Shown: in pieces, positions 8,408 through 44,310 of the stretch
How positions within the stretch are numbered: the first letter of the stretch is position 1
How the letters are laid out: each line of letters opens with the position of its first letter
From: an uncultured Ignavibacteria bacterium
Lineage (GTDB): Bacteria; Bacteroidota; Ignavibacteria; Kapaibacteriales; UBA2268
NCBI GenBank assembly: GCA_903862655.1
Contig: CAIOZA010000024.1
Location: 11,716-75,715, forward strand
Direction: 5' to 3'
Length of the DNA: 64,000 nucleotides
Position numbers and translations under genes: made by a program
The notes under the pieces: model-generated
What the model was told of the DNA's origin: nothing
The model's input: only the letters and a program-made list of their open reading frames with translations
Database searches by the model: none

Positions 8408-8506
8408 GTCATTCTCAGGGAGCAAAGCGACCGTGAGAATCCAGTATTCATGCCGTCTAGATTCGCAACGCAAGGCCTACTGCACCTCACTTCGTTCAGA
8501 ATGACA
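8408..8506 (+). repeat. MITE-like palindromic repeat element, copy A (TIRs GTCATTCTCA / TCAGAATGAC)
   Basis: About 99 bp. Shares 5' GTCATTCTGAGGGAGCGAAGCGACCGTG, the internal GCATCCAGTATT-ATGC-GTCTAGATTC and 3' CTCAC-TCGTTCAGAATGACA with copies at 14383, 27698 and 44173. Intergenic between the GDPD gene stop and the next gene start. Confidence 0.7.
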
Positions 8507-8575
8507 TAATTGTAGTTTTCACAAAATCTCATTTGCAGGAATGATAAAATTACATTTTGTTTATCCAATATTTCT

Positions 8576-9820
8576 TTATTCTTTGGCATAAAACTCATAA
8601 GCTACTTGCGTTGGATAATTTGTCAAAATACCGTCAAATTTGCCATCCTTGATGAAAGTGTGAATGAAATCCGGGACATCGAGTGTCCAGACAAAGGCTT
8701 GTTTACTCTGATCGTGAACTGATTTGACCATATCGGGCTGCAATCCCAATGACCATCTTGGAGCCCACACTTCTGCTGTCGATTTGACAAACAAACTGCT
8801 GTCGAGTTCGCACAAAGCCGGATAGTTCTTATGATTATCGATTTTCAAATAAGCATTCAGTATGTCTTCATCAGGAATCCCAATCAAGACTCTGATATTT
8901 CTATTCTTAGATTTTGCTTGGTCGAGGAATTTTTTCTGTATGGGAGCAATCTTACGTACAACAGAAGGATATTTAGAATCGAGCCACACAAGTTTAATAG
9001 CATTATTGTCCATCGCTGCCTTCAGAGCTTCTTCCAAAGTCGGTATCTTTTCACCGTTCTTCAGGGTGACGAACGCCCTTAGCTGAGCATAAGTATAGTC
9101 CGACACTTTGCCGATAAAGTAATCCTCATTGATCAGTCTTTTATTCATGTACTCATCGTGAAAGATAACCGGTATACTATCTTTAGTTAACTGCACATCT
9201 ATTTCGATACCATTCACACCCAACCGTTCTGAGTACTTAATCATCTCTACTGAGTTTTCAGATGCCGGCAGTCTGTCAATATTTCTACCGCCGCCGCGAT
9301 GGCTGATTATGTAGTAATTTGTGTCTATGTGGATCGGTCGCTGGTACTCGAGGGAAATTTTCTTGTCAACACCATACAATTTGTAGGTTCCGGTCAGAAT
9401 CAGAACTGATGGCTTTTTACCGGATAGCACATCGGATGCTCCGGCGGTTGGATCGATTGTTAATGACATTGAGCCTGTATTGCTGTTCTGAGCAAATCTC
9501 CAATATCCTTCGAAGTAGACAGTGCCTTTTTTCTCGCCGGCATAGAGAATTGCATAAGAGATACTTTTACCAAAAAATACTGAGAATTGATCTCCGGTCT
9601 TCTTTATCACTGCTAGTGGGCCGAACTCGTCACCACCGGGCTTTATCCTGTAGACTCCCTCAATTAAAACATCAGCTTCACTGGTAAGAGATTTGGTACC
9701 CTGTAAAACTTTCTTCTCATCAATCGGAATTGTTGGAGGAGTCAGATCCGGATTACAGGAATCCAAGATCATAACCATTACAAGAACAAGCAGGAGCCAT
9801 ATTGTTAATTTGATTTTCAT
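8576..9820 (-). CDS. glycerophosphodiester phosphodiesterase-family lipoprotein with N-terminal extra domain
   Basis: Lipoprotein signal MKIKLTIWLLLVLVMVMILDSC. GDPD catalytic motifs (IISHRGGG...ENS, IEIDVQLTKDSIPVIFHD). Confidence 0.75.
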   Translation of the reverse strand: MKIKLTIWLLLVLVMVMILDSCNPDLTPPTIPIDEKKVLQGTKSLTSEADVLIEGVYRIKPGGDEFGPLAVIKKTGDQFSVFFGKSISYAILYAGEKKGTVYFEGYWRFAQNSNTGSMSLTIDPTAGASDVLSGKKPSVLILTGTYKLYGVDKKISLEYQRPIHIDTNYYIISHRGGGRNIDRLPASENSVEMIKYSERLGVNGIEIDVQLTKDSIPVIFHDEYMNKRLINEDYFIGKVSDYTYAQLRAFVTLKNGEKIPTLEEALKAAMDNNAIKLVWLDSKYPSVVRKIAPIQKKFLDQAKSKNRNIRVLIGIPDEDILNAYLKIDNHKNYPALCELDSSLFVKSTAEVWAPRWSLGLQPDMVKSVHDQSKQAFVWTLDVPDFIHTFIKDGKFDGILTNYPTQVAYEFYAKE

Positions 9821-10491
9821 AACACAAAGCCCAGTGAGAATTCCGGGTAAAGTAAATACTCGTCAATAGTAGTGAAGCTGAGCCATGACTGATAGTAGAA
9901 CTTCGAGAAGTTGAGCTTCAAGCCCAGATTGACCCAATGATTTTTCCATAATGGCTGTTCAAGCGAAAACTTCAGTCCATAACCCGAAACTGGCTTGAAC
10001 CATTCGCCAAGCCTGATTCCTTCTGAGCTATTGTAAATATAATAGCTCTCTGCATCAATGGTTGCCGAGAGAATAAAATCCCCAAAATCGTATCCGGTGG
10101 AGATGTAAGGACTGAGTATCATACCTGTTGCTTTGACATTAGTGAAGCTCAGCTGTGGATGGCCGAACCAGCCTGCAAACTTCAATCCAGCCGCTAATGA
10201 TAAATCTGTATTCAGGAATGAATGTTGGAAGGCAAGACTTCCATAGTTAGTAAAGTAATTTGTGTTGATCTCTAAAATAGTAGTAATTTTTCCGGGTAAA
10301 CCCATTCTGAAATAGAAGTTAAGTATGGGAGCACTGTTTATTTCTTCTTCCACTACTTCTGTAGGCAGTTTCGATAAGCTTGCACCAACAATGAATTTAG
10401 TGCTCCAGTTTTGATATTCATGAGGGAAGTAGAAATACTCTTCCAAAGGCTTATCCTCAGCGAAGATAAGCGAAGAAACCATGAAGAACAA
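9817..10491 (-). CDS. hypothetical outer-membrane/secreted protein (start uncertain)
   Basis: The ORF track start is TTG at 10491. Upstream in frame, IKSKALILFFMVSSLIFA-EDK is a textbook signal peptide with no ATG/GTG/TTG before it; ATT at 10510-10512 could be the initiator. Aromatic-rich beta-barrel-like body. Confidence 0.5.
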   Translation of the reverse strand: MFFMVSSLIFAEDKPLEEYFYFPHEYQNWSTKFIVGASLSKLPTEVVEEEINSAPILNFYFRMGLPGKITTILEINTNYFTNYGSLAFQHSFLNTDLSLAAGLKFAGWFGHPQLSFTNVKATGMILSPYISTGYDFGDFILSATIDAESYYIYNSSEGIRLGEWFKPVSGYGLKFSLEQPLWKNHWVNLGLKLNFSKFYYQSWLSFTTIDEYLLYPEFSLGFVL

Positions 10492-10737
10492 TATTAGTGC
10501 TTTAGATTTAATGCTGTTATTATTAAAATTCTGTTCAATAAGCAGAGTTAGACGATGAACAGGGCTTTTGATTTAAAATTGCTTAGTTGAACTTTTTCCT
10601 ATCTTGGTGAATGGAGTATTTTATTTAGATAAAAAAATATTCTGCTACCTAGGAGTTGTAGGCTATAAAAATAAAGATTTCGCTTCGAAAGGCAGACGGC
10701 ATCTGCATTCTCAAAATTCGCAGAATTGGCAAAATAT

Positions 10738-13700
10738 TTATCTGTATAATATCAGCTTCGCTGTTTGAACATTTGTTCCATTAGATAATCTGACCAAGTA
10801 CACCCCATCATTCAGTTTATTTGATGATTGATCTGTACCATCGAAGTTCACGATTTTATGTCCTGAAATGATTTCATTGTTAATCAGAGTTTTCACTTGA
10901 TTGCCTGTGACATCGTAAATGCCGAGACTAACCAGTGAAACACCATCACCAACGAAACTTATATGTCCAAAATCCACAACAGGATTGGGAGCGATAGACA
11001 GTTCTGAGCTTGAGAATATCGGCTGATTATTGACACTAACCAATGATTGATCAACGGCAAGAATCTCGAAATCATCTACTAACCCTTCCTGAAGTGAATA
11101 GGGAGTCGATTGATTTGAAGAAGAAGGAGCATCAAAAATGAATTTGACTTGTATAGTCTTAGTGTTTTGGTTGATATATTCAACAAGAGAAATGATTTCC
11201 TCTTCCCATTTGTCTGTTGGATCTTTGCGTGATTCAACTGTTGTCCATGTAAGACCGCTATCGACAGAAACTGAAGTTACCCAATATGTTTCAAATCCGG
11301 GATATGGTAATAAATATGAGTTAGTAAACCATCTGTAATATTTAATAACGGGATTAATTAAGTTAGAAACATCGATAAAAGGCGATACTAATGATGTTTT
11401 ACCATTTGGCATATACTGAGAAAATGAGGATGTAGTTCCTTTAGCGCCAGTTACCCAGCAGTTTAACCCAGCTGGTGTATGATTAAGTCCGGGTTGGATA
11501 ATGCCATATCCGAATGGACTCATGTCAATCTTGTTCGGCTTACCATTCTCCCATTTTCCTTTTGTAGCATTGTCACCAAAAGGTGATGTTTGCCAACCAG
11601 CTGATGTTTCGCAGCTATCTAACTTTACTGATAAAAAACCAACAAGAAATTTAAAAGGAGTTAAGGAAGAATTACCTTTACTGAAATTTATATGATTTTT
11701 GGTTATTGGATCATCTACTGACATGTAGTATTTAACTATAGAGCCAGCCTTTTGAGCCGGAACACTAGCTGAGTAAGAGCCATTGCCATTGAAAGTGGCA
11801 TCTACGGAGTTAGTAGTATTAAAATCATCAATTGACCAAAGAATTTTTACATTCTGAGGAGCAAATCCGGCAACGGAGAGAGCATCAATTTTAAAATTTA
11901 AAGTATAGGGCTTAGCTGTTTCTCTGGTATCAGAGAACTGAGTATGCGAGAAAGACATTTTCATCATTAAGTCAGTGCCGATATGATGATTGTTGAATGC
12001 TTTAACTATTTCCAGATAGTGAGGTGTTCCGTTATTTATATTGCCATCATCGTCATCTGCTAGCAAAGTCTCAATAAACCAGTCAGAAAATGCTTTTCCA
12101 ATATCGGGATCATCAGGCAGTCCATATTTTACAAAGTGAGCAAGATGACGAACATAATCAAGATCTGTAGCTTCTCTTAAATCCCAGAAAGCTCCGCCAA
12201 GTATTTGACCATTATAATGTCCATCGCCCTGCAGGCTGTCTGGAAATATGATTTGGTTCTTTAGGGATCTGATGTACTGGTTTGTATCACCGGGCTTGTA
12301 TCCAAAGCCAACTCTGGGATCATCGAGATTCAAACATGAGAACAGGTCCGCAGTTCCTTCGTTACACGAAAGGTTAACCATTCCATTCGATGCTCCTTTC
12401 TCCTTGTAAAGAAGGAGATTAATGCTGTGTCCATATTCATGGAACAGAACCGACGAACACTCAGAAAGGTTAAATGTTGAAGCTCCGACATCTACAAAAC
12501 TAATAGCCGTGCCCTGTGACATTGCATTAGGCCCGGTATTATAGGGATCAGTGAAATCAATATTTAATGTTAAGACAAAGTCCATGAAAGACATTGATGT
12601 ATCAATTTCCTTAGCGTAGTCATGAATAGTATTTGCATGGTAGAACAAGCTACGTTCGAATTTATGAGAATTACTGTCGTTCCATTCAATTACAAGATTC
12701 TGACCGGGGAATAATCGGGTAGTAAGATTCGCCGTTGCTCTTGGACCCTTATTCATTATGACTTTAGTCCATTTGCTTTCGAATGTAGCATTAACATTTG
12801 TAGTATCGGTAATGTCAACTTCAATCTTTCCATCGCTGTCCGTTGAGTATTTTGTTGAGCCAACTGTTATGAATTGATCGGGCAAATTCTTTATTATTGA
12901 TGGTTCACTGCTGTATTTGATCTTAACCGGAGCAGTAGAAGTTATTGAAGATTGTGCACTCATAGTCATATTCTGTCTCCAGAGTATCCGACCATTCATG
13001 GCGTCGATGTAAGCAAAATAGTTAGCTTGTGTAGCTTCTATCATTATTTCCACTCTGTAAACCAACCTATATTCAGTGTTTTGTCCTATGGTATAAGGTA
13101 AAATGTATAATGTATTATCTACTTTGGATTCATCAGTTGCGACGCTATAATCTAATCCTGTGCTCGCAAGATTTGCAGCTTCTTCGGCTGTGATCGTTGG
13201 ATTTGTAACATTCATTTCAGGAATAGGATAATACTGAGCACTAAATGACCCAAGATTTCCATTGTGGTGAATCTTTAATTCAATTTTTGAAAGAACTACT
13301 TCTAGTCCTTTGTATAGCTGTTTGAATCCGATGTCGAATTTACTATCATGATCCGAAAAGTTTGACAATTCTAGATTCTTTGTATCAACTCCAAACAGAT
13401 TAAAATTTTCAGATAAAAATTTCTTCCCTACTTGAAGTACAGTCTCCTTCTCAAGATTTGGCAAATTGAGGGGAATAGCCTCACCGAAAGCACGGTGAAT
13501 TAATCCTGTAGACTTATCAAAGATAATACTCCACGAACCATACATACCGGTAAAGGCTTTCCATTCAGGAGTTATATCCGGATTCGCAACTAATTTTAAT
13601 TTAATCAGCTCAGGATTGGCTTGAGCAGGCAATTGAATATTTCCATTACCATAAACCAGATTATTATCTGGATTATTAGAAATGGCAGATTGTGCTAATA

Positions 13701-13785
13701 TCGTTGCTGTGCAAAGGATAGAAGCCAGAATAACATTTATGTACTTCATATATTTAACTGAAATATTTATAAATTCCATTTTCAT
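10738..13785 (-). CDS. secreted thermolysin-like (M4/M36-type gluzincin) zinc metalloprotease with T9SS C-terminal sorting domain
   Basis: 1015 aa with a signal peptide. HEYGH (HExxH) is followed 23 aa later by NEGTAD, the Glu third zinc ligand of gluzincins. The C-terminal ~80 aa (…GVYLVRLSNGTNVQTAKLILYR) match the T9SS CTD pattern seen in the four cargo proteins at 55-64 kb. Confidence 0.7.
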   Translation of the reverse strand: MKMEFINISVKYMKYINVILASILCTATILAQSAISNNPDNNLVYGNGNIQLPAQANPELIKLKLVANPDITPEWKAFTGMYGSWSIIFDKSTGLIHRAFGEAIPLNLPNLEKETVLQVGKKFLSENFNLFGVDTKNLELSNFSDHDSKFDIGFKQLYKGLEVVLSKIELKIHHNGNLGSFSAQYYPIPEMNVTNPTITAEEAANLASTGLDYSVATDESKVDNTLYILPYTIGQNTEYRLVYRVEIMIEATQANYFAYIDAMNGRILWRQNMTMSAQSSITSTAPVKIKYSSEPSIIKNLPDQFITVGSTKYSTDSDGKIEVDITDTTNVNATFESKWTKVIMNKGPRATANLTTRLFPGQNLVIEWNDSNSHKFERSLFYHANTIHDYAKEIDTSMSFMDFVLTLNIDFTDPYNTGPNAMSQGTAISFVDVGASTFNLSECSSVLFHEYGHSINLLLYKEKGASNGMVNLSCNEGTADLFSCLNLDDPRVGFGYKPGDTNQYIRSLKNQIIFPDSLQGDGHYNGQILGGAFWDLREATDLDYVRHLAHFVKYGLPDDPDIGKAFSDWFIETLLADDDDGNINNGTPHYLEIVKAFNNHHIGTDLMMKMSFSHTQFSDTRETAKPYTLNFKIDALSVAGFAPQNVKILWSIDDFNTTNSVDATFNGNGSYSASVPAQKAGSIVKYYMSVDDPITKNHINFSKGNSSLTPFKFLVGFLSVKLDSCETSAGWQTSPFGDNATKGKWENGKPNKIDMSPFGYGIIQPGLNHTPAGLNCWVTGAKGTTSSFSQYMPNGKTSLVSPFIDVSNLINPVIKYYRWFTNSYLLPYPGFETYWVTSVSVDSGLTWTTVESRKDPTDKWEEEIISLVEYINQNTKTIQVKFIFDAPSSSNQSTPYSLQEGLVDDFEILAVDQSLVSVNNQPIFSSSELSIAPNPVVDFGHISFVGDGVSLVSLGIYDVTGNQVKTLINNEIISGHKIVNFDGTDQSSNKLNDGVYLVRLSNGTNVQTAKLILYR

Positions 13786-13853
13786 TAATGTAATGACACA
13801 TTAACCATCGGAAAGGTTACAGAATAAATACAAATAAATTATGAATTTGTTAG

Positions 13854-14306
13854 TTAGTTCTCATAAAGAATTTCTGTGTCATAGATTGTTTCGAGCTGCA
13901 GTTTGTGTTTAGCCTCTTCGTCAGCGAGTTTTAGAAGAATTAATTTAATTCTTTGGTCATCAGTTTCTTCTGATAAGGATGTATACATTTTCCATGCATT
14001 TTCTTCGCGCTTGATAGCCGTAATTAGGATTTCCTGAATGGTCAGGTGTGCAGATTCAGCAGGAGTGTGCAGAGTTTCTGATATTCCCAGATTTCTGATG
14101 TCTTGTTTCTGATAGGATTCAAGAGTGGCACTATCAATATTCTGAAGGATCTTCATGTGACCCCATTCCATATTCTCAAGTTCTTTTAATATCACTTTAG
14201 ATGCATCAACCTTAATAATATTCTGAAGATTTCTATAATAATTTGCGGCATCAATTTCCGCTTGAATTGCTTTTTCGATTACTTGTTTAAAATCTGATTC
14301 TGTCAT
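13854..14306 (-). CDS. rubrerythrin-like/ferritin-like diiron domain protein
   Basis: 150 aa. Two E-x(28-33)-E-x-x-H half-sites (ELENMEWGHM and LADEEAKHK) as in the rubrerythrin/ferritin-like four-helix bundle. Confidence 0.55.
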   Translation of the reverse strand: MTESDFKQVIEKAIQAEIDAANYYRNLQNIIKVDASKVILKELENMEWGHMKILQNIDSATLESYQKQDIRNLGISETLHTPAESAHLTIQEILITAIKREENAWKMYTSLSEETDDQRIKLILLKLADEEAKHKLQLETIYDTEILYEN

Positions 14307-14382
14307 GTGTTCTCCTGATTATTTTATTAAGAAATATATACATAGAATATGAAATAACTGTCTGTCATGTGCAAGAGTAATT

Positions 14383-14479
14383 GTCATTCAGGAGAAGCAT
14401 AGCGACTGAAGAGCCCTAGGCCTGCGAACCGCATCCAGTATCCATTCGATCTGGATTCTTCAATTCGTTCAGAATGACA
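14383..14479 (+). repeat. MITE-like palindromic repeat element, copy B
   Basis: GTCATTCAGGAGAAGCATAGCGAC...GCATCCAGTATCCATTCGATCTGGATTC...TTCGTTCAGAATGACA. Same family and orientation as 8408..8506. Intergenic between the ferritin and rubrerythrin-like genes. Confidence 0.7.
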
Positions 14480-14503
14480 ATTTTTTAGGAAAACCTAATT
14501 TAC

Positions 14504-15016
14504 CTATGCCTTTATAACCGGAGGAGTGAACACTCTGGTTTTTAATTCATTATCGAGCATAATAATGCCGGCAGTAAAATCGCCTATAAGCTTGATCTTC
14601 TCGACTATTTCGTTCACTGTTTCTTCTTCTTCCACTTGCTCGGTAATGAACCATTGGAGGAGGATATTTGTAGCATGATCGCTTTCTTTGATAGCAAGAT
14701 CAGTTAATTTATTAATGCTCTCGGTTATGGATTGTTCGTGCTTGTAAGCAGCCTGGAATGCTGCGAGCGGGGAATCCCATTTTGACTCTGGAGCTGCCAG
14801 AGCTGAAATTTTAGGAGATCCGCCTCTTGCCAATAAATAATCAAAAAACCTCATTGAATGGAATGTTTCTTCCTGAACCTGAATGCGCATCCAGTTTGCA
14901 AATCCTGCAAGATTTACTGACTGGAAATATGCTGACATTGAGAGGTAGAGATTAGCTGAGAACATCTCTTTTGATATTTGCTCATTGATTGCATCGGCTA
15001 TTGTCGTCTTAATCAT
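14504..15016 (-). CDS. ftn: non-heme ferritin
   Basis: ORF track 14504..15058. From the internal Met, MIKTTIADAINEQISKEMFSANLYLSMSAYF aligns with the bacterial FtnA N-terminus (…LNEQ.N.E…S.LYL.MS). Ferroxidase Glu/His residues conserved (EETFHSMRF, YKHEQ, DHAT…QWFITEQ.EEE). Confidence 0.8.
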   Translation of the reverse strand: MIKTTIADAINEQISKEMFSANLYLSMSAYFQSVNLAGFANWMRIQVQEETFHSMRFFDYLLARGGSPKISALAAPESKWDSPLAAFQAAYKHEQSITESINKLTDLAIKESDHATNILLQWFITEQVEEEETVNEIVEKIKLIGDFTAGIIMLDNELKTRVFTPPVIKA

Positions 15017-15084
15017 ATTAAATCCTTTTTCTAAAATTGTGTAATAATTTTTATTCAATAAACGTAAAATGTTAATTCCTATTC

Positions 15085-16527
15085 TTAAATCATACGATAA
15101 ATTTTTGGTAGTGAAACTTCAAATAATGTTCCGGGTCTTCCTTCCTCTTGAAGGGGAGACGGAGAAGTCAAGGAAATTGTCCCATGATATTTAATAATAA
15201 CCTCGCGAACAAAGGACAGACCGAGTCCTGAACCTTCAATCCCTTTTTCTCTGGACAAAGAAGTTCTGAAAAAATTAGTGAATATTTTATCTTTATCTTT
15301 ATCGGGAATTCCTATCCCATTGTCAGACACAGAAATTAGTACATCATCCTTCTCTTCAACTAAGTCAATCCGGATTTGTCCACTCTGCTCTGTATATTTG
15401 ATGGAATTTGAGACAAGATTTGCCAGAGATAGTTTTAATAACTTGGGTTCTGCCTGAACAGAGATTTCATCCTTTTCCTCATGATTGAATATTAGATTCT
15501 GCTCCTTGGAGCTGATGAGCACACTAGTATCATTAATGATTTCATCAAATAATTCAATCAAATTTACATTGCTTATATCTTCAACGTTAGATTCAATCTT
15601 CAGCTGTGAAATATAGAGGATATCGTTAATTGTAGAAATAGCATTAGTTAATCTTACTTTTGATCTCTCCAATGGCTGTTGTATCTTTGCCTCTATTTCG
15701 CCAATAGTTCCATTAAGTATCATATTCAGGTAGGTCGTAGCTGCTGCTATTGGAGTTTTAAGATCATGAACAACGGTCATAACGTACCTTGATTTAGTTT
15801 TTTCTGCTATTTCGAGTTCAGCATAAGCCAGAGTAAGCTTGTATTCCCGAATATAAAGTTCCTGGGCTATCGAGTTAGCCAGATAGGTTGCAAGGTAAAG
15901 CCCAATGCCGAAAATAGTATAGAAAAACAGAAGATAACCAGTATTGGTATGTAACTCCAATTGTATCACATTGAATGAATAATGATAAATCAAGCCTTTC
16001 ATTTCAAGATAAGATCCGGTAATTGTTATCGCAAGAGTTACAGTATTGATTAGATTTACAACTGCTCCCGGCAGAATCAAACTCCCGATGATGACATGAA
16101 AAAGAAAAAAAGCATACAATGGGGTTTCTACTCCGCCAGTAAAATATATAAAGGCTAATAATGAAGCGTAATCGCAGAGAATCTGAATAAGAGAAAAGTG
16201 CAGGTCGTGGAATTTATGCACCTGCTCATAGTCTGATCGTTTAGGATATTTTTGCTTCTCGCGTTCAAGATACTTACTTACAAAAAGGAAGAAAATGTTA
16301 TAGCCAAGTATTGATGCGGCAACTATCCAGATTGGACCCGGGTTGAGCTGAAGTGATTTAAAGGAACTTTCAATCAGATTGATTCCGTATATAAGAAAAA
16401 GTAGAAGAGCCACAGCTCCGTACCGCAATTTGATTAACCACATATTGCGTCTGCCGATCCGGAACCAAAATTGGTCGTGCTGTATTCTGTCAGGAACCAG
16501 ATTAAATATCGACAACATAAAAGACAT
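15085..16527 (-). CDS. membrane-bound sensor histidine kinase
   Basis: Multiple N-terminal TM helices. HisKA H-box VVHDLKTPIAAA. HATPase_c N/G boxes (LVSNSIKYT, SDNGIGIP, GSGLGLSFV). Confidence 0.8.
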   Translation of the reverse strand: MSFMLSIFNLVPDRIQHDQFWFRIGRRNMWLIKLRYGAVALLLFLIYGINLIESSFKSLQLNPGPIWIVAASILGYNIFFLFVSKYLEREKQKYPKRSDYEQVHKFHDLHFSLIQILCDYASLLAFIYFTGGVETPLYAFFLFHVIIGSLILPGAVVNLINTVTLAITITGSYLEMKGLIYHYSFNVIQLELHTNTGYLLFFYTIFGIGLYLATYLANSIAQELYIREYKLTLAYAELEIAEKTKSRYVMTVVHDLKTPIAAATTYLNMILNGTIGEIEAKIQQPLERSKVRLTNAISTINDILYISQLKIESNVEDISNVNLIELFDEIINDTSVLISSKEQNLIFNHEEKDEISVQAEPKLLKLSLANLVSNSIKYTEQSGQIRIDLVEEKDDVLISVSDNGIGIPDKDKDKIFTNFFRTSLSREKGIEGSGLGLSFVREVIIKYHGTISLTSPSPLQEEGRPGTLFEVSLPKIYRMI

Positions 16528-16831
16528 TCATATCATTTACTACAGATTTATTCAAAATAGCAATTTTAATTCATTTTACAAAAATTAATGATCTCATTTT
16601 TAATTCGGGGAATGCATAATCTGTAATCAATTTTACTGGGTTTTCATATATTCATGGTATTTCATAAGAAGTGTCGTGTTTCCAAGAATCAAAAAAGTTA
16701 GGCTGCACTATCTGAACCATTAGGGTAATTACTATTGGGGATTATTCCTTTTTCAATGATTCTGCTATAGAGATATGATTAAGATTTTGCTACTGCGTAG
16801 CTCAATATATATTTGGTACAAGATATTTTAT

Positions 16832-19114: not shown

Positions 19115-19253
19115 TAATTTTCCTTAGTAACAGTAAATCTACCAAATAAAAAAAATCATATCTTCCTAGAGATTACGTTAAGCAAACTACAGGAAGACAA
19201 GAAAGAAATAATTAATACAGAATCAGTTTCTGAACTCTATATCGCCACGGCTA

Positions 19254-19979: not shown

Positions 19980-20089
19980 CGGTTAAGAGACATAAATGTA
20001 TAGTAAATTAAAAAATTTACGTTATAAAAAAAACAAAAAACTAAGCATTGATAGAGACTGATATGGCAGGAAAAATATTGTAAGTTAAT

Positions 20090-32641: not shown

Positions 32642-32798
32642 TTTTATTAATCCGTTCTTTTTCATATATTATTTTAAATATAGATAGAAACTTACTTTTT
32701 GTTGCAGCTTCTATCGGTTTGATTAGTTTTCTCTTTAAGATATACTCGGCAGGTCAGTATTTAACGATAGATAAGTTTAGATTAGAAGAGAGGTTAAT

Positions 32799-33233: not shown

Positions 33234-33491
33234 TATTTCGTTAAAATTGCTTTATCAAAGGTTTCAATAAAATATTTGAAGCTACAAATCGATTATACCG
33301 ATGAAAATAATCAAGAGATTTTATCAAAATTAGCGAATGTCAAGAACGTCTCTCTTTCGATCACGCAGTAAAAGCGAAGCTAATGGAGGAATCTATTGAA
33401 TATTAATGTGTTATAGAAAATGGGACAAACCTGGAATGACAAAGTTAGGTACTTTTAGTTGGTCTCCTTTAATGAATGGATATTGTAAATC

Positions 33492-34439: not shown

Positions 34440-34651
34440 AAAACGATATTTATCTGAATCTAAAGTCGACTTTATAATATTATTTGTTTTTTGTTAATCT
34501 GAACGAAGTGAAAAATCTAGTACACGTAATGTTTCTAGATTCTTCACTTTTCTTCATTATATTCAAAATGAAACTTTTATGATAAATTTTTAAGATTTCA
34601 ATTTATTGTTGTATGTTTGTTAGTATAAATTTAATCACTTAACATTTTAAT

Positions 34652-35512: not shown

Positions 35513-35542
35513 TCAAACCAGAGCTAATCTATAAATTGAAAA

Positions 35543-35577
35543 CCGCCTCTACTGCAAGCAGTAGAAGCGGTTTTTTA
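35543..35577. terminator. bidirectional rho-independent terminator between convergent genes
   Basis: CCGCCTCTACTGC-aagc-GCAGTAGAAGCGG, a 13-bp stem with one mismatch, followed by TTTTTT. Confidence 0.6.
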
Positions 35578-35628
35578 ATATTAGAACAAATTCTTATACT
35601 TTTCTCTAAGACTTCTTGAAAGCTCTAA

Positions 35629-36543
35629 TCAGTTAATGGCAAACTTCAGAAAACCATAAAGAGAATTCATATCGTCTTTGCTCAGCTTCATAACAGATGG
35701 TTTGAAACCACTCTTAAGTGTATTTGTGGAGACAAGTTGAACAAAAACGTTATATTCACTTCTCCATGCACTTGTTTTGAATAGTGTTGCAATTACTTTT
35801 CTCTGATCAGCTGTTACTTTTCTGAAAAGAATGGCCTGCTCTGTCTGATTATCTGCAATTCTTGTTATAATCGAATTAATTGCTTCGTTTAATACCTTAT
35901 TATCGGCAACAAGATTCTTCTCAGCTTTTAGAACTGGAATCTGTGAAGAAGTTCTTCTGGGTGAAGCAAGATCGTAAATATCGTCAATCTGCTTCAGCTC
36001 AGGAACAGTAATCTCGGGGAAACCACCGATCATATTGCGAATGTAGTGAATCACTCCGAATCTGTCTTCAATTGGCAGGAATTCGTAAGCTATCATACCA
36101 GATCCCGGAATGCCTTCTGTCAGAGTCTTGAACATACCACCAATATTTCTTCCGTTTTTCCAGCCTTCTGTCAGAGTGAAATTCCTTGGTTTGGGCATAA
36201 GATTAGCACCACCTGGACCATCTCCACCACCTTTTTCTCCATGGCAGGATGAGCAGGTATTTTTGAATACTTCAGCACCACGAGCCAGCAATTGCTGATT
36301 CGAATAGCCAACATCCATAACATTTACACCTGGCATAGGCTTGCCCTTAACCATGTCGATCGGAACTTCCTTTGTTGTATCTTGTGTTATGACTTGTTTT
36401 ACTTCATCCGGACTCATTTTCTTAATGTCCGGAATCATATTTACATAAGCCATGCTGACGCCTAACCAGATTACACCCGCAATCACAAGAAGCACAGCAA
36501 TGAGACTTAATTTATGTTTTTTCTTTGGAGTATTTTCTTCCAT
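35629..36543 (-). CDS. membrane-anchored monoheme class I cytochrome c with C-terminal extension
   Basis: N-terminal TM helix. CSSCHGEKGGGDGP heme-binding site, Met ligand region (IPGSGMIAY). Last gene of the actABCDEF operon, so plausibly the electron carrier to the cbb3 oxidase. Confidence 0.65.
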   Translation of the reverse strand: MEENTPKKKHKLSLIAVLLVIAGVIWLGVSMAYVNMIPDIKKMSPDEVKQVITQDTTKEVPIDMVKGKPMPGVNVMDVGYSNQQLLARGAEVFKNTCSSCHGEKGGGDGPGGANLMPKPRNFTLTEGWKNGRNIGGMFKTLTEGIPGSGMIAYEFLPIEDRFGVIHYIRNMIGGFPEITVPELKQIDDIYDLASPRRTSSQIPVLKAEKNLVADNKVLNEAINSIITRIADNQTEQAILFRKVTADQRKVIATLFKTSAWRSEYNVFVQLVSTNTLKSGFKPSVMKLSKDDMNSLYGFLKFAIN

Positions 36544-36571
36544 TATTTTACCTTTAAAGCAAATTCAATAA

Positions 36572-37804
36572 TTAAAGATGAAAATCCATAGCTCTTTTTA
36601 GCTTTGGATCGCCAATCGGAATAAGATTTCGCTTAGTATAAGAATATTTAAATAAAATCATTACCAAACCCAGCCCTAAAAGAGGAAATCCTAACTCTGT
36701 CCAGCTGAATACGGCACCTGATTTACTGAATGTTGGCATGATCAACCAATATAGATCAAAGAACTGTGCGAAAATTATCCACCAACCTACATACTTAAGA
36801 CGATTGATATTGCTTTTTGATGGCTGAGAAAGTAATCCGGCATAAGGAATAATAAATTTAATAAAGATTATCCCAATCGAAATATACAGCCAGCTGCCTT
36901 GAGTTCTGGATAAGAACCAGAAAGTTTCTTCCGGAAGGTTAGCATACCAGATAAGCATAAACTGACTGAATGCGATATAAGCCCAGAAATTGATAAATGC
37001 AAAAAGAAATGCACCCAGATTGTAAAAATGATCCTTTGTGATCCACGATGGCAATGCTCCAAAGCTTTTAAGTTTAATCGCTATCAATGTAATCGCTGCA
37101 AATGCTGTCAAAAGCGATCCTGCAAAATAGTAAACACCAAAAATGGTAGAGAACCAAAGCGGCTCTAAACTCATAATCCAGTCGATACCAATAAGAGTTA
37201 TTCCGAGACCGAAGATTGGCATTAATCCTGCTGATAATCTAATATTCTTCTTTGTAAGATTCTGATCGGAATTGTTGTCCTGCTTGGCTGAGTTTCTGAT
37301 AATAACGATGGAAAACAAACCAACCAGCACTATAATCGCAGTAATTCTGATATAGAAGAACTGAGGATTAAGGAATGCTGTCTTAGCCATAACCGTTTTG
37401 TGTAAAGTCAAGTATTCCGGGTTTGCCCATTGAAACACATGCGAGAAGTTGAAGAAAACAGGAATTGCAAATATTGGTGCAATGAATACTAATGGCACAA
37501 GGTATTCTGCAATTCTTCTGAATGGTACACTCCAAACAGCACCTGTCAGATATTCAAGTCCTATCAGGAACAATGAGCACATTCCCATTCCAATCAGGAA
37601 TACAAAAACGATTAAACTATCGAATGATGCCCTGACCGGGTCTGCAACAAGAGCAAGAATAGAAAGAATCAAACCCAATGCTGCAAAACCTAGCCCATAA
37701 GTTCCGAATTTCGGAGGTAGGGGCTTCTTTACGTAATCATGATTATTTTGATTCATTGAAATCTTCCTCCTTGGGATTAAATGCTCTCTGTAGTGATCGT
37801 ACAT
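36572..37804 (-). CDS. actF: alternative complex III subunit ActF (NrfD-like membrane subunit)
   Basis: 410 aa polytopic membrane protein, paralogous in architecture to ActC. Position after actDE. Start may be the Met at 37756. Confidence 0.65.
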   Translation of the reverse strand: MYDHYREHLIPRRKISMNQNNHDYVKKPLPPKFGTYGLGFAALGLILSILALVADPVRASFDSLIVFVFLIGMGMCSLFLIGLEYLTGAVWSVPFRRIAEYLVPLVFIAPIFAIPVFFNFSHVFQWANPEYLTLHKTVMAKTAFLNPQFFYIRITAIIVLVGLFSIVIIRNSAKQDNNSDQNLTKKNIRLSAGLMPIFGLGITLIGIDWIMSLEPLWFSTIFGVYYFAGSLLTAFAAITLIAIKLKSFGALPSWITKDHFYNLGAFLFAFINFWAYIAFSQFMLIWYANLPEETFWFLSRTQGSWLYISIGIIFIKFIIPYAGLLSQPSKSNINRLKYVGWWIIFAQFFDLYWLIMPTFSKSGAVFSWTELGFPLLGLGLVMILFKYSYTKRNLIPIGDPKLKRAMDFHL

Positions 37805-38918
37805 AATTTATAACAGCCCATCTCTCGTCTCTGCTTAACTGTTTTGCATAAGACGGCATTACATTCTGACCGAATGTAATCACATGATATATTCTTCCGT
37901 CGGGCCAGTTTCTGACCTTCTTGGAGTGAAGCGTCGGCGGATTGGGGAAGAGGCCTCTTAATCTGCTATCACCTTTGGCATAATTGCCATGGCAAGGACT
38001 GCAGAAAGTTTTGAATTTGGCTTCGCCTTTAGCTAATACAGCATCGGTCATCTCCAAAGGATTGATTAAGAAGGTTCCGGCAGAATCAGGTGAGGCTTTG
38101 AATTCTTCGGGTATAAAATCCCTTGGAACTGTACCTTCAACTGCATCTCTCATGCCAAAGCCATCTTTAAAGAAATCAGATGGTGCCTGTGCATTGATTC
38201 TATCCTGATTAAGCATCCAGTTGTAAGGTGTCATGAACATAAGTTTATTTGTAACAAAGTAAACAGCCCCACTGACAACAATAGCCGAACAAAGAAGAAA
38301 AATAATAAAATTCTTTGTGAAGATTGGCAATGTATTAATCTTTGGATAATATATTGATTCAATATTTGTTGCTCCAAGACCTGCAAGAAAATCTTTTACT
38401 TCTGCTTCACTGAACAGTTTATCTTCTGCTTCAATGCACAATCCAAACATATCAGAAGTACAATGCTTAATATAGTCTGTATCATGCAAAGGATTGGAAT
38501 TGTCTGGCATTTTGAAAAACACAAACAACAAACTCAACACTGTTCCAATTGCAGCAAAAAGCACAGTAAGCTCGAATGTAATCGGGATTAATGCAGGCAG
38601 AGGGAAGTTTGGCTTACCACCGATATTCAATGGATAAGCTATGTTGAAAACCCAATACATGAACGAAAGTGCAACTGCAGTTCCAGTTAGACCAAATGCC
38701 AACGCAAAATATCCCATTGTCGATGGCTTTAGCTTCATTGCCGAATCCATGCCATGAACCGGATAAGGAGTATTAATGTCGTAATGCTTATAACCCTTCT
38801 CTATTGTCTTTTCGGCAGCATGGATTATTGAATCCGGAGTGGAAAACAGTCCGACAACTGAATGTAGCTTTTTATTTTCCATTGTTACTCTCTGCTTTGT
38901 GGTGAGTTGGTTGAGCAC
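37743..38918 (-). CDS. alternative complex III ActD-ActE fusion (membrane DUF3341 domain + monoheme cytochrome c)
   Basis: The N-terminal half has the ActD-like two-TM region. The C-terminal half carries CSPCHGN and …[10 protein letters not shown]… (monoheme cytochrome c = ActE). Confidence 0.65.
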
Positions 38919-40254
38919 CTGGCAATACCGCCTTGATTTCTGCGATTGATACTACCGGCATTGTCTTAGTAAAGATCAGAAGCAAGGTAAAGAATAGACC
39001 AAAGCTTCCTATCAGCAAACCTCCATCGACAAGAGTTGGTTTATAATAAGCCCAGCTTGATGGCAGGAAGTCTCTTGATAATGAGGTGACGGTGATTACG
39101 AATCTCTCGAACCACATACCTACATTCACAAGAATTCCGATTACTAACATAACAGGAATGCTTCTTCTTAGTTTTTTGATCCAGAACAATTGCGGGAATA
39201 TTACGTTGCAACTTACCATAATCCAGTAAGCCCATGCGTAGTCTCCAAATGCTCTGTTAACAAATGTAAATGCTTCGGCTGAGTTACCACTGTACCATGC
39301 AATAAAGAATTCCATGGCGTAAGCATAACCGACCATACTGCCAGTAACGATGATAATCTTGTTCATTTTCTCGAGCGTATCAAGAGTAATAATATGCTCA
39401 TAATGAAACACTTTTCTCAATAGAATGAGACAGTTCTGCACCATAGCAAAACCCGAGAAAACGGCTCCAGCCACGAAGTATGGCGGGAAGATTGTGGTAT
39501 GCCATCCCGGAATAATCGATACTGCAAAGTCGAAGCTGACGATCGTATGTACCGAAAGCACAAGAGGCGTAGCAAATCCTGCAAGGATCAGGTAAACCAT
39601 TTCGTAGTTCTGCCAGTGCCTGTTCGAACCTCTCCAGCCAAAACTGGTAATAGTATAGACGATCTTTTTAATCTTATTTTTGGTTCTATCTCTGAGATTA
39701 GCAAAATCAGGGATAAGTCCAACATACCAGAAAATTGCAGATACAATGAAGTATGTAGATACTGCAAAAACGTCCCATAATAGGGGTGAAGTAAAGTTCA
39801 CCCAGAGTGAATGATCGTTTGGATGTGGAATCAAATAATGATCCAGCCATGGTCTTCCTGTATGCAGAGCAGGGAAAAGACCGGCAGTCATAACTGCGAA
39901 TATCGTCATACCTTCGGCAAATCGTGCTATTCCGGTTCTCCATTTCTGTCTGAATAAGAATAGAATAGCCGATATTAGAGTTCCTGCATGCCCTATACCT
40001 ACCCAGAAGACGAAGTTAACGATATCGAATCCCCAACCAACCGGATTGTTGTTACCCCACATACCAATTCCGTAATAAAGGGAAAAGCCCAAAGCTATTG
40101 CCCCAGTAAGCAGCATAGAAGCTGTGATGCTGATGGCTATCAAAAAATTTCTATTGGGCAGCGTCTCTAACGGTGCGCCAATCAGCTCGTCTATCTGCTT
40201 AAAGGACGGGTTTCCTTCTACTACGGATGTTTCAACTGTGTAATCCGTTTGCAC
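38872..40254 (-). CDS. actC: alternative complex III subunit ActC (NrfD/PsrC-family quinol-interacting membrane subunit)
   Basis: 460 aa with ~10 TM helices. NrfD-like hallmarks. Lies between actB and actDE. Confidence 0.8.
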
Positions 40255-43200
40255 TATCTTCCTCCTCGTGTTTATTTCTCAATTTAGCGATATATGTTAC
40301 ATTGGGCTTAATGTTCAGTTCTTCTAAGGAATGATAGCCCAAATTATGTTCTCTTAGTTTTGTTATATTAGATTCTTTGTCGTTCATGTCTCCAAAGCTG
40401 ATTGCACTTGCAGGACATGCTACCTGACATGCCGTCTGGACATCAGATCCTTTGAGTGGTTTTCCGTCCTTGGTTGCTTCCTGTCTGGCTTCGGATATTC
40501 TTTGGATACAGAATGTACATTTCTCCATAACTCCGCGTGAACGAACAGTTACTTCAGGATTATGAAGAAGCTTCAGCGAATCCTGTAAGTAAACTCCATT
40601 CGCGAAATGATCTCTGAAGTTAAAGAAGTTGAATCTTCTCACTTTGTATGGGCAGTTGTTGTTGCAATACCTTGTGCCGACGCATCTGTTGTAAACCATT
40701 TGATTAAGACCTTCATCGCTGTGAGTTGTCGCTACAACGGGACATACGTTCTCGCAAGGGGCACTATCGCAATGCTGACATAGCATTGGCTGAGTGCTTA
40801 CGATTGGATCTTCGGGAGTCCCACTGTAATATCTGTCTAATCTAATCCAGTGCATTTCTCTACCGACAGCAACCTGATCCTTGCCAACAACAGGAACATT
40901 GTTCTCTATATTGCAAGAAATAACGCAGCTGGTGCAGGAAATACATTTATTCATATCGATAGCCATTGCCCACTTAAGCCCGGGATAAAGACGTTCTGCA
41001 TTCACACTTTGTAGTTCTTTTTCGTGTTCTTTCATGAACTTAGGATTCTTTTTGTATCCCTCTACAGTTCCTTCTTTAATAATATCTCTCTTAAAATGCA
41101 GATCCTTTACGAATTCCTCATCAACAGCGTGATGCTCCTGAGTTGAGAATACTTTGAAAGTATCTCCGGTCTTAGTAAGAATTGCACTTTCGAATATCCA
41201 TTCCGATATACCTGATTTTTTACTGAGAAGTATATTTGCATTGTGTCCCACGCCTGTTCCAACTTCTCCGGCAATTGTTCTGCCGTAGCCAAGTTCGATG
41301 GCTACAACATTTTCTGCCATACCGGGTTGAAGCATAACAGGTAGCTTCACACTTCTGTTGTCTATTTTAATCTCAATAACATCGTTATTAACTACTCCCA
41401 ATTCCTTAGCTGCTTTTGGCGAAATGGATGCGTAATTGTCCCATGCTGCTTTAGTGACCGGATGAGGTAACTCCTGAAGCCAGCCGTTTGATGAATATCT
41501 TCCGTCATCGACTGTATAGTTTCTGTTCAGCATCACTGTCCAACCACTTGCCTTCTGAGACATAGTAACTGCTGGCAGCTTGAACTGAGGAAATCCGCTG
41601 ACGGCTTTAGAACTCAGGTTGATAAATCCATCATGCAGACAGGAATACCAGAATTTTCTGAATTCAACAGCAGGATTAGCCTGAGTGTAAATTTCTTTCT
41701 CCCAGCGATCCATAAGATATTTATGATAAATATCTTCTGTAAATGTATCCGGTTTTGCTGAAATCCAATTAAGAAGAATAGCTTCTTTCTGCCTGGTTGA
41801 ATAAAGTGGCGCAATAACAGGCTGTTGTAAATTGAACAATCCGGTTCTTAAATTAAAATCGCCCCAGCTCTCAAGATCGTGATTAATTGGAAGTATATAA
41901 TTATTCCCATTTGAAGACTCGTTCTGATTCATTGTAAATGAGATAACAGTACCTACTTTTTCAAGAGCTTTACTAAATCCGTAATCATCGGCAAAATGAT
42001 AAACAGGATTAGAATCAAAGTTTATCAATACTGCTACTTTCCCATTCTTCATATTGCTTACAAGAGCCTCAAGCTCCTGTGAAGTTGAATAAGCAGAATA
42101 ACTTACATTTCTTGATGACAGGTCAAATAAATCAGCCGATCCAAGAATAGAATTCAGCATATTGGTTGCAATGTGAACGTTTACCGGAAGCTTCTCCCCT
42201 GCATGAACAAGGCTCTTCCCTTTATTCTGGATTATATCTTTAACGAGATAATCAACGTATTTCTTATTCAGATCATTTTCTTTAACGAAAGCTGCTAGAT
42301 TATGTCCTGAGATCAGGGATGTTACCGAACCGTCAACAGATAATTTTCCTTTACTCACTATTTCATTAGTGAGACAAAGCAGGAACTCAAATTGTTTACC
42401 GGGGCTGATTCTGATTCTATAATCGGCATTCATTCCTGTTAAGCTCATTGCAGCTTCGGCACAATACAATCTGTTGAAGTCATCAGGTTTTTCTACATCA
42501 CGTTTGGATGCAAACATTCTGATCTGTTCGGTAGTGTTTCCTTCGTTGCCGAGAAAATCAGATTCGAGGGCTAAGATTATCTTCGCTTTATCCCATTTTA
42601 CTGATGGGAGCTCAACTTCACCAAAACATTCTTTCCATGCGATTGCACGGTTATTGTCGCTATGCAGTTCATATGTATAGAATTTAACAGTAGGGAATTT
42701 AGCCTGGAAATCACTGAACAATTTCTTCTGAGTCGGCGAAAAGACTGTATGAGTTATAATTGCTATTTCCTTACCTTCGGCAGATGCTTTGATCAGCAAA
42801 TCTGTTATTTCCTTGTCAGCTTTAACCCAATCGATTTTTACTAATTCATCCTTATCAAGAATCAACGCACTATCTTTTTTTCTTAAAGGATATTTAAGTC
42901 TTTCTGGATCGTATAGATCAAGAATCGTTGCGTGTCCTGTCTGAGGAATTTTACCTAAATTAACAGGATGCTCCGGATTACCATCAATTTTGATAGGTCT
43001 TCCTTCGCGGGTTTTGATAAGAATACCTGACCCATCATTCAAACTGGAAGCATAATAAAGAGCTTCTCCCATCGTAGAGAATTCCGGCTTATTATTATAT
43101 GTGACGATCTCACCTTTATCGCGGTAGTTGTTGCAACTTGCCAGAGCAAAGGCTGAGGAAGCTCCAACCAGAGCGAAGAACTTCCTTCTGGAGAGTGGAG

Positions 43201-43348
43201 ACATCTTATCGGTATTAAATTCTTCAGTCACTCGTTCTGGGAACTCAAGCATCGAAGAATTATGATCTTCATGCTCATGTACATGAGGGTGAATGTGATC
43301 TTCGGATTTTAGAGTGTTCATATCATCAATATTGTTCATTTGATTCAA
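40232..43348 (-). CDS. actB: alternative complex III subunit ActB (molybdopterin-oxidoreductase-like + 4Fe-4S ferredoxin-like domains, Tat signal)
   Basis: 1038 aa. His-rich N-terminal extension, then twin-arginine motif [21 protein letters not shown]-terminal Cys clusters ([11 protein letters not shown]…, [26 protein letters not shown]) of the ferredoxin-like B2 domain. Confidence 0.85.
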
Positions 43349-43536
43349 CCTTTCGTATTCCTTTTAACTGCTAAAGGATGTGATTTAACGTTGATGGCAA
43401 TTGCCGCATCGATTTTCTCTGCTTTGGGCTTGCCAATTCCAAAGGGAAGTGCACGGGCAGCCAATCCCATCAATCCACCAATTGCGGAGATCTGCAGGAA
43501 TTTTCTTCTTTTTTCTGTGTTCTTAACGTCTTTCAT
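43345..43536 (-). CDS. small ORF encoding a Tat-signal-like peptide between actA and actB
   Basis: 63 aa. KRRKFLQISAIGGLMGLAARALPFG is a canonical twin-arginine signal. The stop overlaps the actB ATG (ATGA). Could be a remnant or a small subunit. Confidence 0.3.
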   Translation of the reverse strand: MKDVKNTEKRRKFLQISAIGGLMGLAARALPFGIGKPKAEKIDAAIAINVKSHPLAVKRNTKG

Positions 43537-43547
43537 TGTATCTCCCT

Positions 43548-44120
43548 CTATCTATGGCAATTACTACAATTAACAGGTCCATTTTTAATTTTATCCCCAA
43601 GTTCAGGCAATCTGTTGTGCGCATCTCTATGGCATGACAAACATTGCGACATACGGAAGCTCATCTTCTGTGAAATCACTTCTGCATTAGCAACGTCTCC
43701 GTGGCAATGGACACAGTTAATTCCTTTCACAACATGGGAACTGTGATTAAAATAAGCGAAATCACCCAGTTTATAAACTCTCTTCCATGGAATAGGAGTA
43801 CCATCAGTATAATACTTCACAAGTTTAATAATCTCTGGTCTGTCCCTACGAGCCACACTATGGCAGTTCATACAGATTGAGGCAGAAGGAACACCGGCAT
43901 GGCGGGCCTTCTCGACACCTGTATGGCAGTATTTGCAGTCAATCTTCAATTGGCCTGCATGCAGCAGATGTGAATATTTTATTGGCTGCTCGGGTTGATA
44001 ACCAACTCCATCACGTTCTGATTTGGATATCAAAAATGTTAATGCCACAGCGACAAGGATAACTCCAATCGTTATTGGCAGCCTTATTTTTAGAATTCGG
44101 TCAAGATGTTGTTTTTCCAC
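43548..44120 (-). CDS. actA: alternative complex III subunit ActA (pentaheme cytochrome c)
   Basis: 190 aa with an N-terminal TM anchor. Five CxxCH motifs (CKYCH, CMNCH, CVHCH, CLSCH, CSNCH), NapC/NirT-like. Confidence 0.8.
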   Translation of the reverse strand: MEKQHLDRILKIRLPITIGVILVAVALTFLISKSERDGVGYQPEQPIKYSHLLHAGQLKIDCKYCHTGVEKARHAGVPSASICMNCHSVARRDRPEIIKLVKYYTDGTPIPWKRVYKLGDFAYFNHSSHVVKGINCVHCHGDVANAEVISQKMSFRMSQCLSCHRDAHNRLPELGDKIKNGPVNCSNCHR

Positions 44121-44172
44121 TTCTCGCCTTATATATGTTGTTAATTTATTTATTCAAAAAAATTCTTTTCGT

Positions 44173-44310
44173 GTCATTCCCGCGAATGAGACTGCGTGAA
44201 AACTACGATCATGTCATTCTGAGGGAGCGAAGCGACCGTGTGTTCCGAAGGACTGCGAAGCGCATCCAGTATTAATGCGGTCTAGATTCCTCACTACGTT
44301 CGGAATGACA
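44173..44310 (+). repeat. MITE-like palindromic repeat element, copy D (with extra 5' half-copy)
   Basis: GTCATTCCCGCGAATGAG… then GTCATTCTGAGGGAGCGAAGCGACCGTG…GCATCCAGTATTAATGCGGTCTAGATTCCTCACTACGTTCGGAATGACA. The closest match to the family consensus. Intergenic between the DsbD_2-like gene and actA. Confidence 0.7.

Follow-up and report, generated by a model that had tools for sequence, protein, structure and literature searches.

Repetitive extragenic palindromes (REPs) tagged with CGTC have been reported from Proteobacteria, Chlorobi, Bacteroidetes, Spirochaetes and Thermotogae and include dRS3 of Neisseria as well as RPE-4 and RPE-6 of Rickettsia (PMC3733652). The units carry an unpaired CGTC or TGTC tag (or CCTC), a stem of 8–9 bp that starts with A-T and T-A, a loop of 4–5 nt and an unpaired 3-nt tail with the consensus CCA. 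They mostly occur as inverted dimers, often heterodimers, around structured spacers of 20–100 bp, and they are intergenic, preferentially in unidirectional and convergent spacers. A dedicated transposase is lacking, and no tyrosine transposase gene with flanking CGTC units was found (PMC3733652). Here we analyzed a 64,000-nt stretch of DNA of an uncultured Ignavibacteria bacterium (contig CAIOZA010000024.1, positions 11,716 to 75,715), subsequently called the window. A preliminary description had noted four intergenic ~100-bp repeats in it and interpreted them as miniature inverted-repeat transposable elements (MITEs) with terminal inverted repeats (TIRs), or else as REP-like. The repeat family is genuine, and its members are probably compound REP-type repeats of the superfamily formed by CGTC-tagged REPs and NTS (‘Ssn-related motif’) hairpins. 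Small hairpin repeats of this kind are already known across many phyla, and the elements are best described as compound mosaics resembling Neisseria intergenic mosaic elements (NIMEs) and bacterial interspersed mosaic elements (BIMEs). Only two aspects are moderately new, namely a GA-type architecture that lies outside the published Ssn-related motif (SRM) pattern and a natural series of empty, filled and inverted sites.

The NTS has the sequence CGTCATTCCCGCGMAVGCGGGAATCYRG, the oriented form of dRS3, and like related SRM hairpins it is found on either side of the gene encoding SsnA, a single-domain GIY-YIG protein of 94 aa (PMC11893778). SsnA binds the hairpin solely as single-stranded DNA (ssDNA) and solely on the forward strand, and it cuts a few nucleotides upstream; cutting depends critically on the three bases in front of the palindrome, and binding on the C that follows it (PMC11893778). 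Cleavage a few nucleotides 5′ of the head was shown biochemically for the SsnA proteins of Neisseria, N. elongata, N. wadsworthii and Wolbachia, and in N. meningitidis SsnA reduces transformation by NTS-bearing DNA (PMC11893778).

The repeats in the window were delimited by reading the regions, by a repeat scan of the window and with an nhmmer profile built from the copies A, B and D. These three copies, located at 8408–8506, 14383–14479 and 44213–44310, are full-length homologues (E 4e-19, 5e-29 and 3e-30, respectively). The earlier proposal of four copies with common TIRs and a common interior thus holds for A, B and D, but not for copy C, a different mosaic of which the right arm alone matches the profile (27789–27815, E 0.006) and which has no left TIR at 27698. 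Nor is the family restricted to four sites: the window contains two more, site E (34492–34573) and site F (63183–63210), both adjoining plus-strand genes, and ~140–320 nt to the left of window position 1 a divergent spacer contains a further, complete compound copy (L276, 1596–1775). A, B and D are inverted heterodimers of a long L unit on the plus strand (pattern GTCATTCTGAGGGAGCGAAGCGACCGTGAGAATC) and a short S unit on the minus strand (pattern GTCATTCCGAACGNAGTGAGGAATC). The heads of the units (C/TGTCATTC) face outward and their tails (ATCYRG) inward, with a spacer of ~30–40 nt in between. What had been described as a conserved interior (GCATCCAGTATT.ATGC.GTCTAGATTC) consists of the L tail, the short spacer and the S tail.

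A scan of 185,579 species genomes for the right arm CTCACTNCGTTCNGAATGAC (the 20-mer of the S arm, with 18 bases fixed) yielded at least 120 stretches. The matches listed come from Acidobacteriota, Chloroflexota, Bacteroidota, Alpha-, Beta-, Gamma- and Deltaproteobacteria, Firmicutes, Nitrospirota, Verrucomicrobiota, Armatimonadota, Spirochaetes and the candidate phyla radiation (CPR). The typical unit recurs with hardly any change in over 12 phyla, and the exact 25-mer of the S unit of copy D also occurs in many phyla; only 11 stretches of viral contigs carry the S unit. Inspection of the loci revealed the arm as the reverse complement of a hairpin unit of ~25 nt, GTCA-NNNN-GA-(2-3 bp)-GNA-(2-3 bp)-GA-N′N′N′N′-TC, for example GTCATTCCGAGCGAAGCGAGGAATC, and typical foreign elements are composed of two such inverted units with their heads outward. 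Beside full units, tandem partial repeats of the head (GTTCGGAATGACA plus 7–9 nt, or GTCATTTCGAGC plus 10 nt) were observed in four loci (L014, L036, L111 and L007).

The conserved object is a local hairpin on the GTCA... strand, which comprises a 5-bp stem, tandem G·A/A·G pairs, an inner stem of 2–3 bp and a GNA triloop. This was shown by covariation in 45 distinct 29-nt units, from which the query arm was left out and for which complementarity was not a selection criterion. The hairpin cells are paired to 94.6%, compared to 76.0 ± 1.2% in shuffles, and 72 cells with double changes were observed where 22 were expected, a value reached in none of 500 shuffles. Compensatory changes affect six of the seven pairs, for example TTCC/GGAA, TCCC/GGGA, TTTC/GAAA and CCCT/AGGG, and the pairing signal is lost when the partners are slid against each other. 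GA...GA surrounds the inner stem in 96 out of 132 units (73%), although GA was not required for selection, and T or C precedes GTCA in 123 out of 132 units from other genomes. Where S units have a recognizable partner (median spacer 29 nt), the 4-nt stem of the partner differs in 37 out of 54 cases. The covariation within units and these differing partners demonstrate that the local hairpin is conserved and not a pairing between the ‘TIRs’. Furthermore, a covariance model built exclusively from units of other genomes recovers window units at 42.5, 42.4, 36.5, 24.7 and 20.1 bits, including the arms at 44282–44310, 27787–27815 and 14451–14479 (E 5e-6 to 7e-5). In 1.14 Mb of control sequence, consisting of 70 loci around ActB homologues from a metagenome scan, the model found one site; just one of these loci came from a close relative, and it did not extend as far as site D. 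The inner motifs GCGAAGC and ACGNAGT are of the d(GCGNAGC) mini-hairpin type, for which an exceptional stability as DNA is described.

The window units share their main features with both described groups of repeats; the REP-like label given earlier was right. Like NTS and SRM hairpins, they have a head of the form (C/T)GTCATTCC, a palindromic core, a C immediately after the palindrome and a CYRG tail (CCAG, CTAG); they start their stems with A-T and T-A, they are intergenic, and they occur in hundreds of copies in many phyla, where the unit type of the window flanks SsnA homologues in other genomes. They differ by tandem G·A pairs, GNA triloops or long inner inserts; moreover, an ssn gene was not seen in the window, and cleavage is known for the NTS whereas the GA-type units are only candidate substrates. 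The features in common with CGTC-tagged REPs are the unpaired CGTC/TGTC tag, the A-T/T-A start of the stem, the short tail, the arrangement as inverted heterodimers with structured spacers of 20–100 bp and as mosaic clusters, the preference for unidirectional and convergent spacers and the absence of a dedicated transposase. In contrast to these REPs, including dRS3 and the NIMEs of Neisseria, the host here belongs, judging from the names attached to homologues of window genes, to the Fibrobacteres–Chlorobi–Bacteroidetes (FCB) group (Ignavibacteria/Kapabacteria-like), and the L unit possesses an inner segment of 16 nt as well as a leader module. A literature search for the exact arm sequences returned unrelated primers only.

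Within the window, the head is CGTC in the L unit of A and at site F and TGTC in B, C, D and the S unit of A, and the stems of all units begin with ATTC.../...GAAT. The well-preserved units (L of A, S of B, C and D, the NTS-type unit of C and site F) keep GTCA...AAT-C, whereas the closing AAT-C is not kept by the degenerate ones (S of A, the interrupted L of D, L of B and site E). Behind ...AAT the tails read CCAG (L of A, S of B), CTAG (S of D, NTS-type unit of C) or CTCA (S of C). The NTS-type units at 27822–27849 and 63183–63210 are compatible with a stem of 8 bp and a loop of 4 nt. The GA-type units have either nine stem positions, two of them G·A/A·G, with a 3-nt loop or eight positions with a 5-nt loop, and the interior of the L units is longer.

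Copy A, which covers 8407–8547 with the additional module described below, starts with an L unit at 8407–8444 on the plus strand, where it reads CGTCATTCTCAGGGAGCAAAGCGACCGTGAGAATCCAG (CGTC head, stem TTCTCA/TGAGAA, tail ATCCAG, DNA folding energy −7.3 kcal/mol). This unit matches the external unit model weakly and with insertions; a near-identical unit is present in a close relative (L057). The S unit of A, of the GA type, lies at 8478–8506 on the minus strand (TGTCATTCTGAACGAAGTGAGG...) and has a degenerate closing stem. Copy B (14382–14480) comprises an L unit on the plus strand (14382–14412, TGTC head, stem TTCAG/CTGAA), a spacer with small GC hairpins that ends in the unit tails ATCCAG/CTGGAT (14413–14450) and an S unit on the minus strand (14451–14479, TGTCATTCTGAACGAATTGAAGAATCCAG; external model 36.5 bits, E 6.5e-5). 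In copy D (44172–44310 with the module) the plus-strand L unit at 44212–44269 ends in the tail ATCCAG, and the minus-strand S unit at 44282–44310 (TGTCATTCCGAACGTAGTGAGGAATCTAG) scores 42.4 bits (E 4.9e-6). The closing stem of the L units of both B and D is split by an insert of ~21 nt with two further GNA mini-hairpins, which in D are CCGAAGG and GCGAAGC.

Copy D had been credited with an extra 5′ half-copy. This half-copy exists, but it is rather one instance of a recurrent, optional module of ~40 nt (module 2), which combines the initial ~17 nt of an NTS-type unit (TGTCATTCCYGCGAATG) with a conserved leader (GYGTGAAAACTACRATYA) immediately adjoining the head of a full unit. In D it occupies 44172–44211 on the plus strand (TGTCATTCCCGCGAATGAG with the leader GTGAAAACTACGATCA). 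The repeat scan had detected it as a 67-nt inverted repeat (8496–8562/44156–44222, 78% identity), as the module is inverted at the other end of A: there it lies at 8507–8547 on the minus strand, directly 5′ of the S head, as half an NTS-type unit (TATCATTCCTGCAAATGAG) plus the conserved leader GTGAAAACTACAATTA (nhmmer E 8e-16). A third module follows on the right side of C (E 4e-9 with the nhmmer ‘ext’ model), and in L057 both ends of the element carry one.

Copy C is a mosaic of a degenerate GA-type unit on the plus strand (27737–27765, TGTCATCCCGAGCGGAGAGAGGCATCTGT; 24.7 bits, E 0.011), an S unit on the minus strand (27787–27815, TGTCATTTCGAACGTAGTGAGAAATCTCA; 42.5 bits, E 4.6e-6) and an NTS-type unit on the minus strand (27822–27849, TGTCATTTCTGCTAATGCAGGAAACTAG; DNA folding energy −3.8 kcal/mol). 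The 3′ part of the NTS-type unit is present twice, since a direct 16-bp duplication, AGTTTCCTGCATTAGC, at 27682–27697 (minus strand) and 27824–27839 brackets the inner part of the copy. Judging from this duplication, it looks as if ~127 nt were nested into a pre-existing hairpin unit. Site E consists of two degenerate S-type units in inverted orientation, located between the plus-strand genes of MlaD and OmpA, and site F is a single NTS-type unit on the minus strand (CGTCATTCCTGCGCATGTAGAAATCTC), 20 nt past the stop codon of the reading frame 60728–63163.

Orthologous sites in relatives show that the elements come and go. In relatives with a ferritin 84% identical to that of the window, the ferritin/rubrerythrin spacer corresponding to site B is 102 nt long and contains no element. 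Relatives with a 94% identical ferritin have a spacer of 286 nt at this position, in which the element is inverted relative to the genes and carries module 2 on both sides; this copy is 93% identical to copy D of the window but only 77% to copy B. The 94% relative contains 3–4 units in 16.5 kb. At site D, 81% relatives have a 77-nt DsbD_2/cytochrome c7 spacer with a single NTS-type unit of 28 nt (TGTCATTCCTGCGAATGCAGGAATAAC). Three public contigs of the lineage (L192, L193 and L200) end inside the element, indicating that the repeat breaks short-read metagenome assemblies. We also noticed that L057 and L200 (GCA_964464375.1, CAYXFU01) are labelled ‘uncultured Hyphomicrobiales bacterium’, yet their ferritin and the adjacent histidine kinase are ~90% identical to the window and the compound element is present in them as well, which suggests a wrong taxonomic label or a chimeric bin. 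The end of another public contig, L194 (European Nucleotide Archive ERZ27300174, k141_435523), is a Nextera/Illumina adapter at 2184–2258 (CTGTCTCTTATACACATCT...ATCTCGTATGCCGTCTTCTGCTTG), a contamination in the public assembly.

The genes next to the units in other genomes point to a possible role. After clustering of 1,426 open reading frames (ORFs) from 120 right-arm loci, an ORF of ~100 aa with a GIY-YIG domain (PF01541 as the only Pfam hit) was found in three of them (L016, L047 and L059), each time directly beside GA-type units. For the family members P0306 and P0333, a GA-type unit is located 28–58 nt upstream in 18 out of 18 places, in most cases together with an inverted unit 35–38 nt or 185 nt downstream and sometimes with tandem arrays. 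Altogether, five distinct loci of small GIY-YIG genes have GA-type units at a distance of at most 60 nt. The GIY-YIG profile matches a 94-aa ORF of N. gonorrhoeae with an E-value of 8e-29; because this ORF keeps Y6, Y17 and E64, the residues mutated in the SsnA study (PMC11893778), and is embedded among 13 NTS/dRS3 units, we regard it as the SsnA orthologue. As a control, viral GIY-YIG genes were inspected and no GA-type units were found at 44 loci. The flanking loci, the match to SsnA and the viral control make it very probable that GA-type units are the cognate motifs of an Ssn subfamily. Arrays of long GA-type units with a period of ~70 nt also adjoin a GIY-YIG gene (L258, 1–650 and 1150–1350).

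Most likely, to judge from the sequences, the units act as ssDNA hairpins for a nuclease of the Ssn family, with gain, loss, nesting and inversion at the DNA level. When DNA becomes single-stranded in replication, transformation or repair, each strand of a compound element would present one forward unit. A small single-domain Ssn nuclease would bind this unit and cut a few nucleotides 5′ of the head. In this lineage the repeats multiply, nest within each other, flip and disappear at the DNA level. Effects on flanking genes are probably incidental, and side effects at the RNA level may occur. More tentatively, and in our view possible but doubtful, the GA-type hairpin could represent a distinct and very widespread Ssn specificity class (FCB group, CPR and other phyla), and compound elements might spread by staggered Ssn-dependent cuts at pre-existing palindromic units. 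Such a spread is suggested by the nested 16-bp duplication at C, the single unit at site D of the relatives and the inverted, re-occupied site B.

Several observations weigh against the assignment to the CGTC/NTS superfamily and the link to Ssn. The published SRM pattern HGTCWYN(0-2)YYVSBRHN(0-5)WNVSBRGN(0-2)RNCYNB has 0 matches in the window (shuffle mean 0.11), because it disallows the tandem G·A positions and the long L interior; in L001–L120 it yields 20 matches, and several of these loci contain both canonical SRMs and GA-type units. A GIY-YIG gene is absent from the 64-kb window (best E 0.17) and from ~75 kb of loci from close relatives, and the GIY-YIG loci examined are few and all from other lineages. 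Single units have weak nearest-neighbor folding energies as DNA (−1 to −7 kcal/mol), with parameters that give no credit to sheared G·A pairs and GNA loops. Finally, the S unit lies on the transcribed strand in all four window copies. In unidirectional spacers of the foreign loci the forward strand is sense in 22 cases and antisense in 15, and the chance of four out of four is then ~0.12, so that the bias in the window is not significant; it is also contradicted at the orthologous site B.

This orientation was the ground on which the preliminary description favored a transcribed structured element. In such a case, the hairpins would be transcribed as part of operon mRNAs and would stabilize the upstream message, attenuate read-through or act as processing sites. 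The location of the window copies, just past a stop codon between co-directional genes, fits this idea, and the S units in the 120 foreign loci favor unidirectional (37) and convergent (21) over divergent spacers (9), as do REPs (PMC3733652). The stems also contain G·T pairs. However, the element is flipped at site B of the 94% relative, the strands are divided 22:15 elsewhere and one copy resides in a divergent spacer, so the inference from orientation is unsupported. Folding of the transcribed strand, which had been proposed as a check, gave a modest result: copy B beats its shuffles with z = −2.7, but A and D reach no more than −1.2 and −1.8, respectively, and for the whole element folded as DNA z ranges from −0.7 to −4.3 on either strand without discriminating between the two. 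A terminator-like hairpin with a T-run is lacking at A, B and D. The likewise proposed comparison with Rfam found no match at the gathering threshold in the window or in eight loci and nothing relevant at E<=10 for copy D. A C·A/G·U asymmetry in the spacer was considered as a sign of RNA structure on the transcribed strand and rejected, as the stem is formed by two unit tails (ATCYRG) and the apparent G·U merely reflects a C/T difference at Y. We therefore consider a primary function in RNA unlikely.

An even less probable alternative, for which we see a very small chance, are REPIN-like elements mobilized by a Y1 HUH transposase (RAYT or the TnpA of IS200/IS605) that recognizes the hairpins. 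REPINs and the BIMEs of Gammaproteobacteria resemble the window elements as inverted hairpin doublets with lineage-specific populations and a single-copy nuclease gene flanked by repeats; a conserved 5′ tetranucleotide is present here as well, and spread without target-site duplications (TSDs) would suit HUH chemistry. But the tag is C/TGTC instead of GTAG, and the gene recurring beside the units encodes a GIY-YIG nuclease instead of a Y1 HUH transposase. In the study of CGTC-tagged REPs, tyrosine transposase genes with CGTC units on their flanks were not found (PMC3733652), and a recurring cluster of transposase-like ORFs was not found in the 120 loci. REPIN sequences are genus-specific, whereas units of the window type are nearly identical across phyla.

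An interpretation as classical MITEs, that is, deletion derivatives of an insertion sequence (IS) with a DDE transposase and the TIRs GTCATTCTGA...TCAGAATGAC, is the least probable of all and can practically be dismissed: the length of ~100 bp, the terminal inverted repeats of 10–15 bp, the AT-rich flanks and the varying site occupancy among relatives are as expected for MITEs, but the ‘TIRs’ represent the heads of two distinct units that fold independently of each other and are kept across phyla, the partner units usually differ (37/54), units also occur singly (site F; L195/L196), and neither TSDs nor a parent IS could be found. With respect to TSDs, no direct repeat is common to the flanks of A, B and D, and none appeared in comparison with the empty or alternative sites of the relatives; AATT on both sides of copy B was rejected as a candidate since it belongs to the extended inverted repeat. 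With respect to the parent, an IS with such ends was not found in the window or the loci, and the 120 arm-bearing loci contain no recurrent cluster of transposase ORFs. The elements thus resemble bacterial MITEs such as the Correia elements in size, terminal inverted repeats, intergenic location and co-transcription with neighboring genes, but differ from them by the lack of TSDs and a parent IS, by modular units that also occur singly and by covariation within the arms.

As described earlier, copies A–D each lie between co-directional minus-strand genes: GDPD and a gene of unknown function for A, ferritin and rubrerythrin for B, a 117-aa ORF and DUF6029 for C, and DsbD_2 and cytochrome c7 for D. 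The ORF 7762–8598 indeed runs through copy A, as had been pointed out, and reaches into the end of the GDPD gene; for a sibling contig, a public gene call repeats the error with the same over-long product, and the true start is likely the ATG at 8379 (205 aa). The genes of D belong to a respiratory cluster on the minus strand (40232–52548), which comprises an ACIII-like molybdopterin/4Fe-4S subunit, cytochrome c7, DsbD_2, FixH, FixG-like and FixP-like proteins, a fused CcoN-CcoO (717 aa) and a heavy-metal P-type ATPase. At their C-termini, three large proteins encoded on the plus strand have similar sorting domains of the type IX secretion system (T9SS; 58330–58400, 60641–60711 and 63086–63156), and they show internal repeats with a period of 156 nt (58688–59244, 63424–63662); a fourth T9SS-tailed protein is encoded at 10738–13785. 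Among the public records used, NZ_CP119140.1 and NZ_CP119142.1 (Neisseria gonorrhoeae, 2.17 Mb) are filed as plasmids in PLSDB but are evidently chromosomes.

The window adds an Ignavibacteria/Kapabacteria-like host to those of CGTC/NTS-type repeats, with about one site per 10 kb, and provides natural examples of empty, filled and inverted sites in one lineage. For annotation it is relevant that repeat units create spurious or over-long ORFs such as 7762–8598. If GA-type units are the sites of a separate Ssn subfamily, this would widen the catalogue of sequence-specific ssDNA nucleases, which are of interest as tools, and would give a handle on the multiplication of the repeats. If the elements spread by Ssn-dependent cuts, this would supply the propagation mechanism that is missing for CGTC-type REPs.

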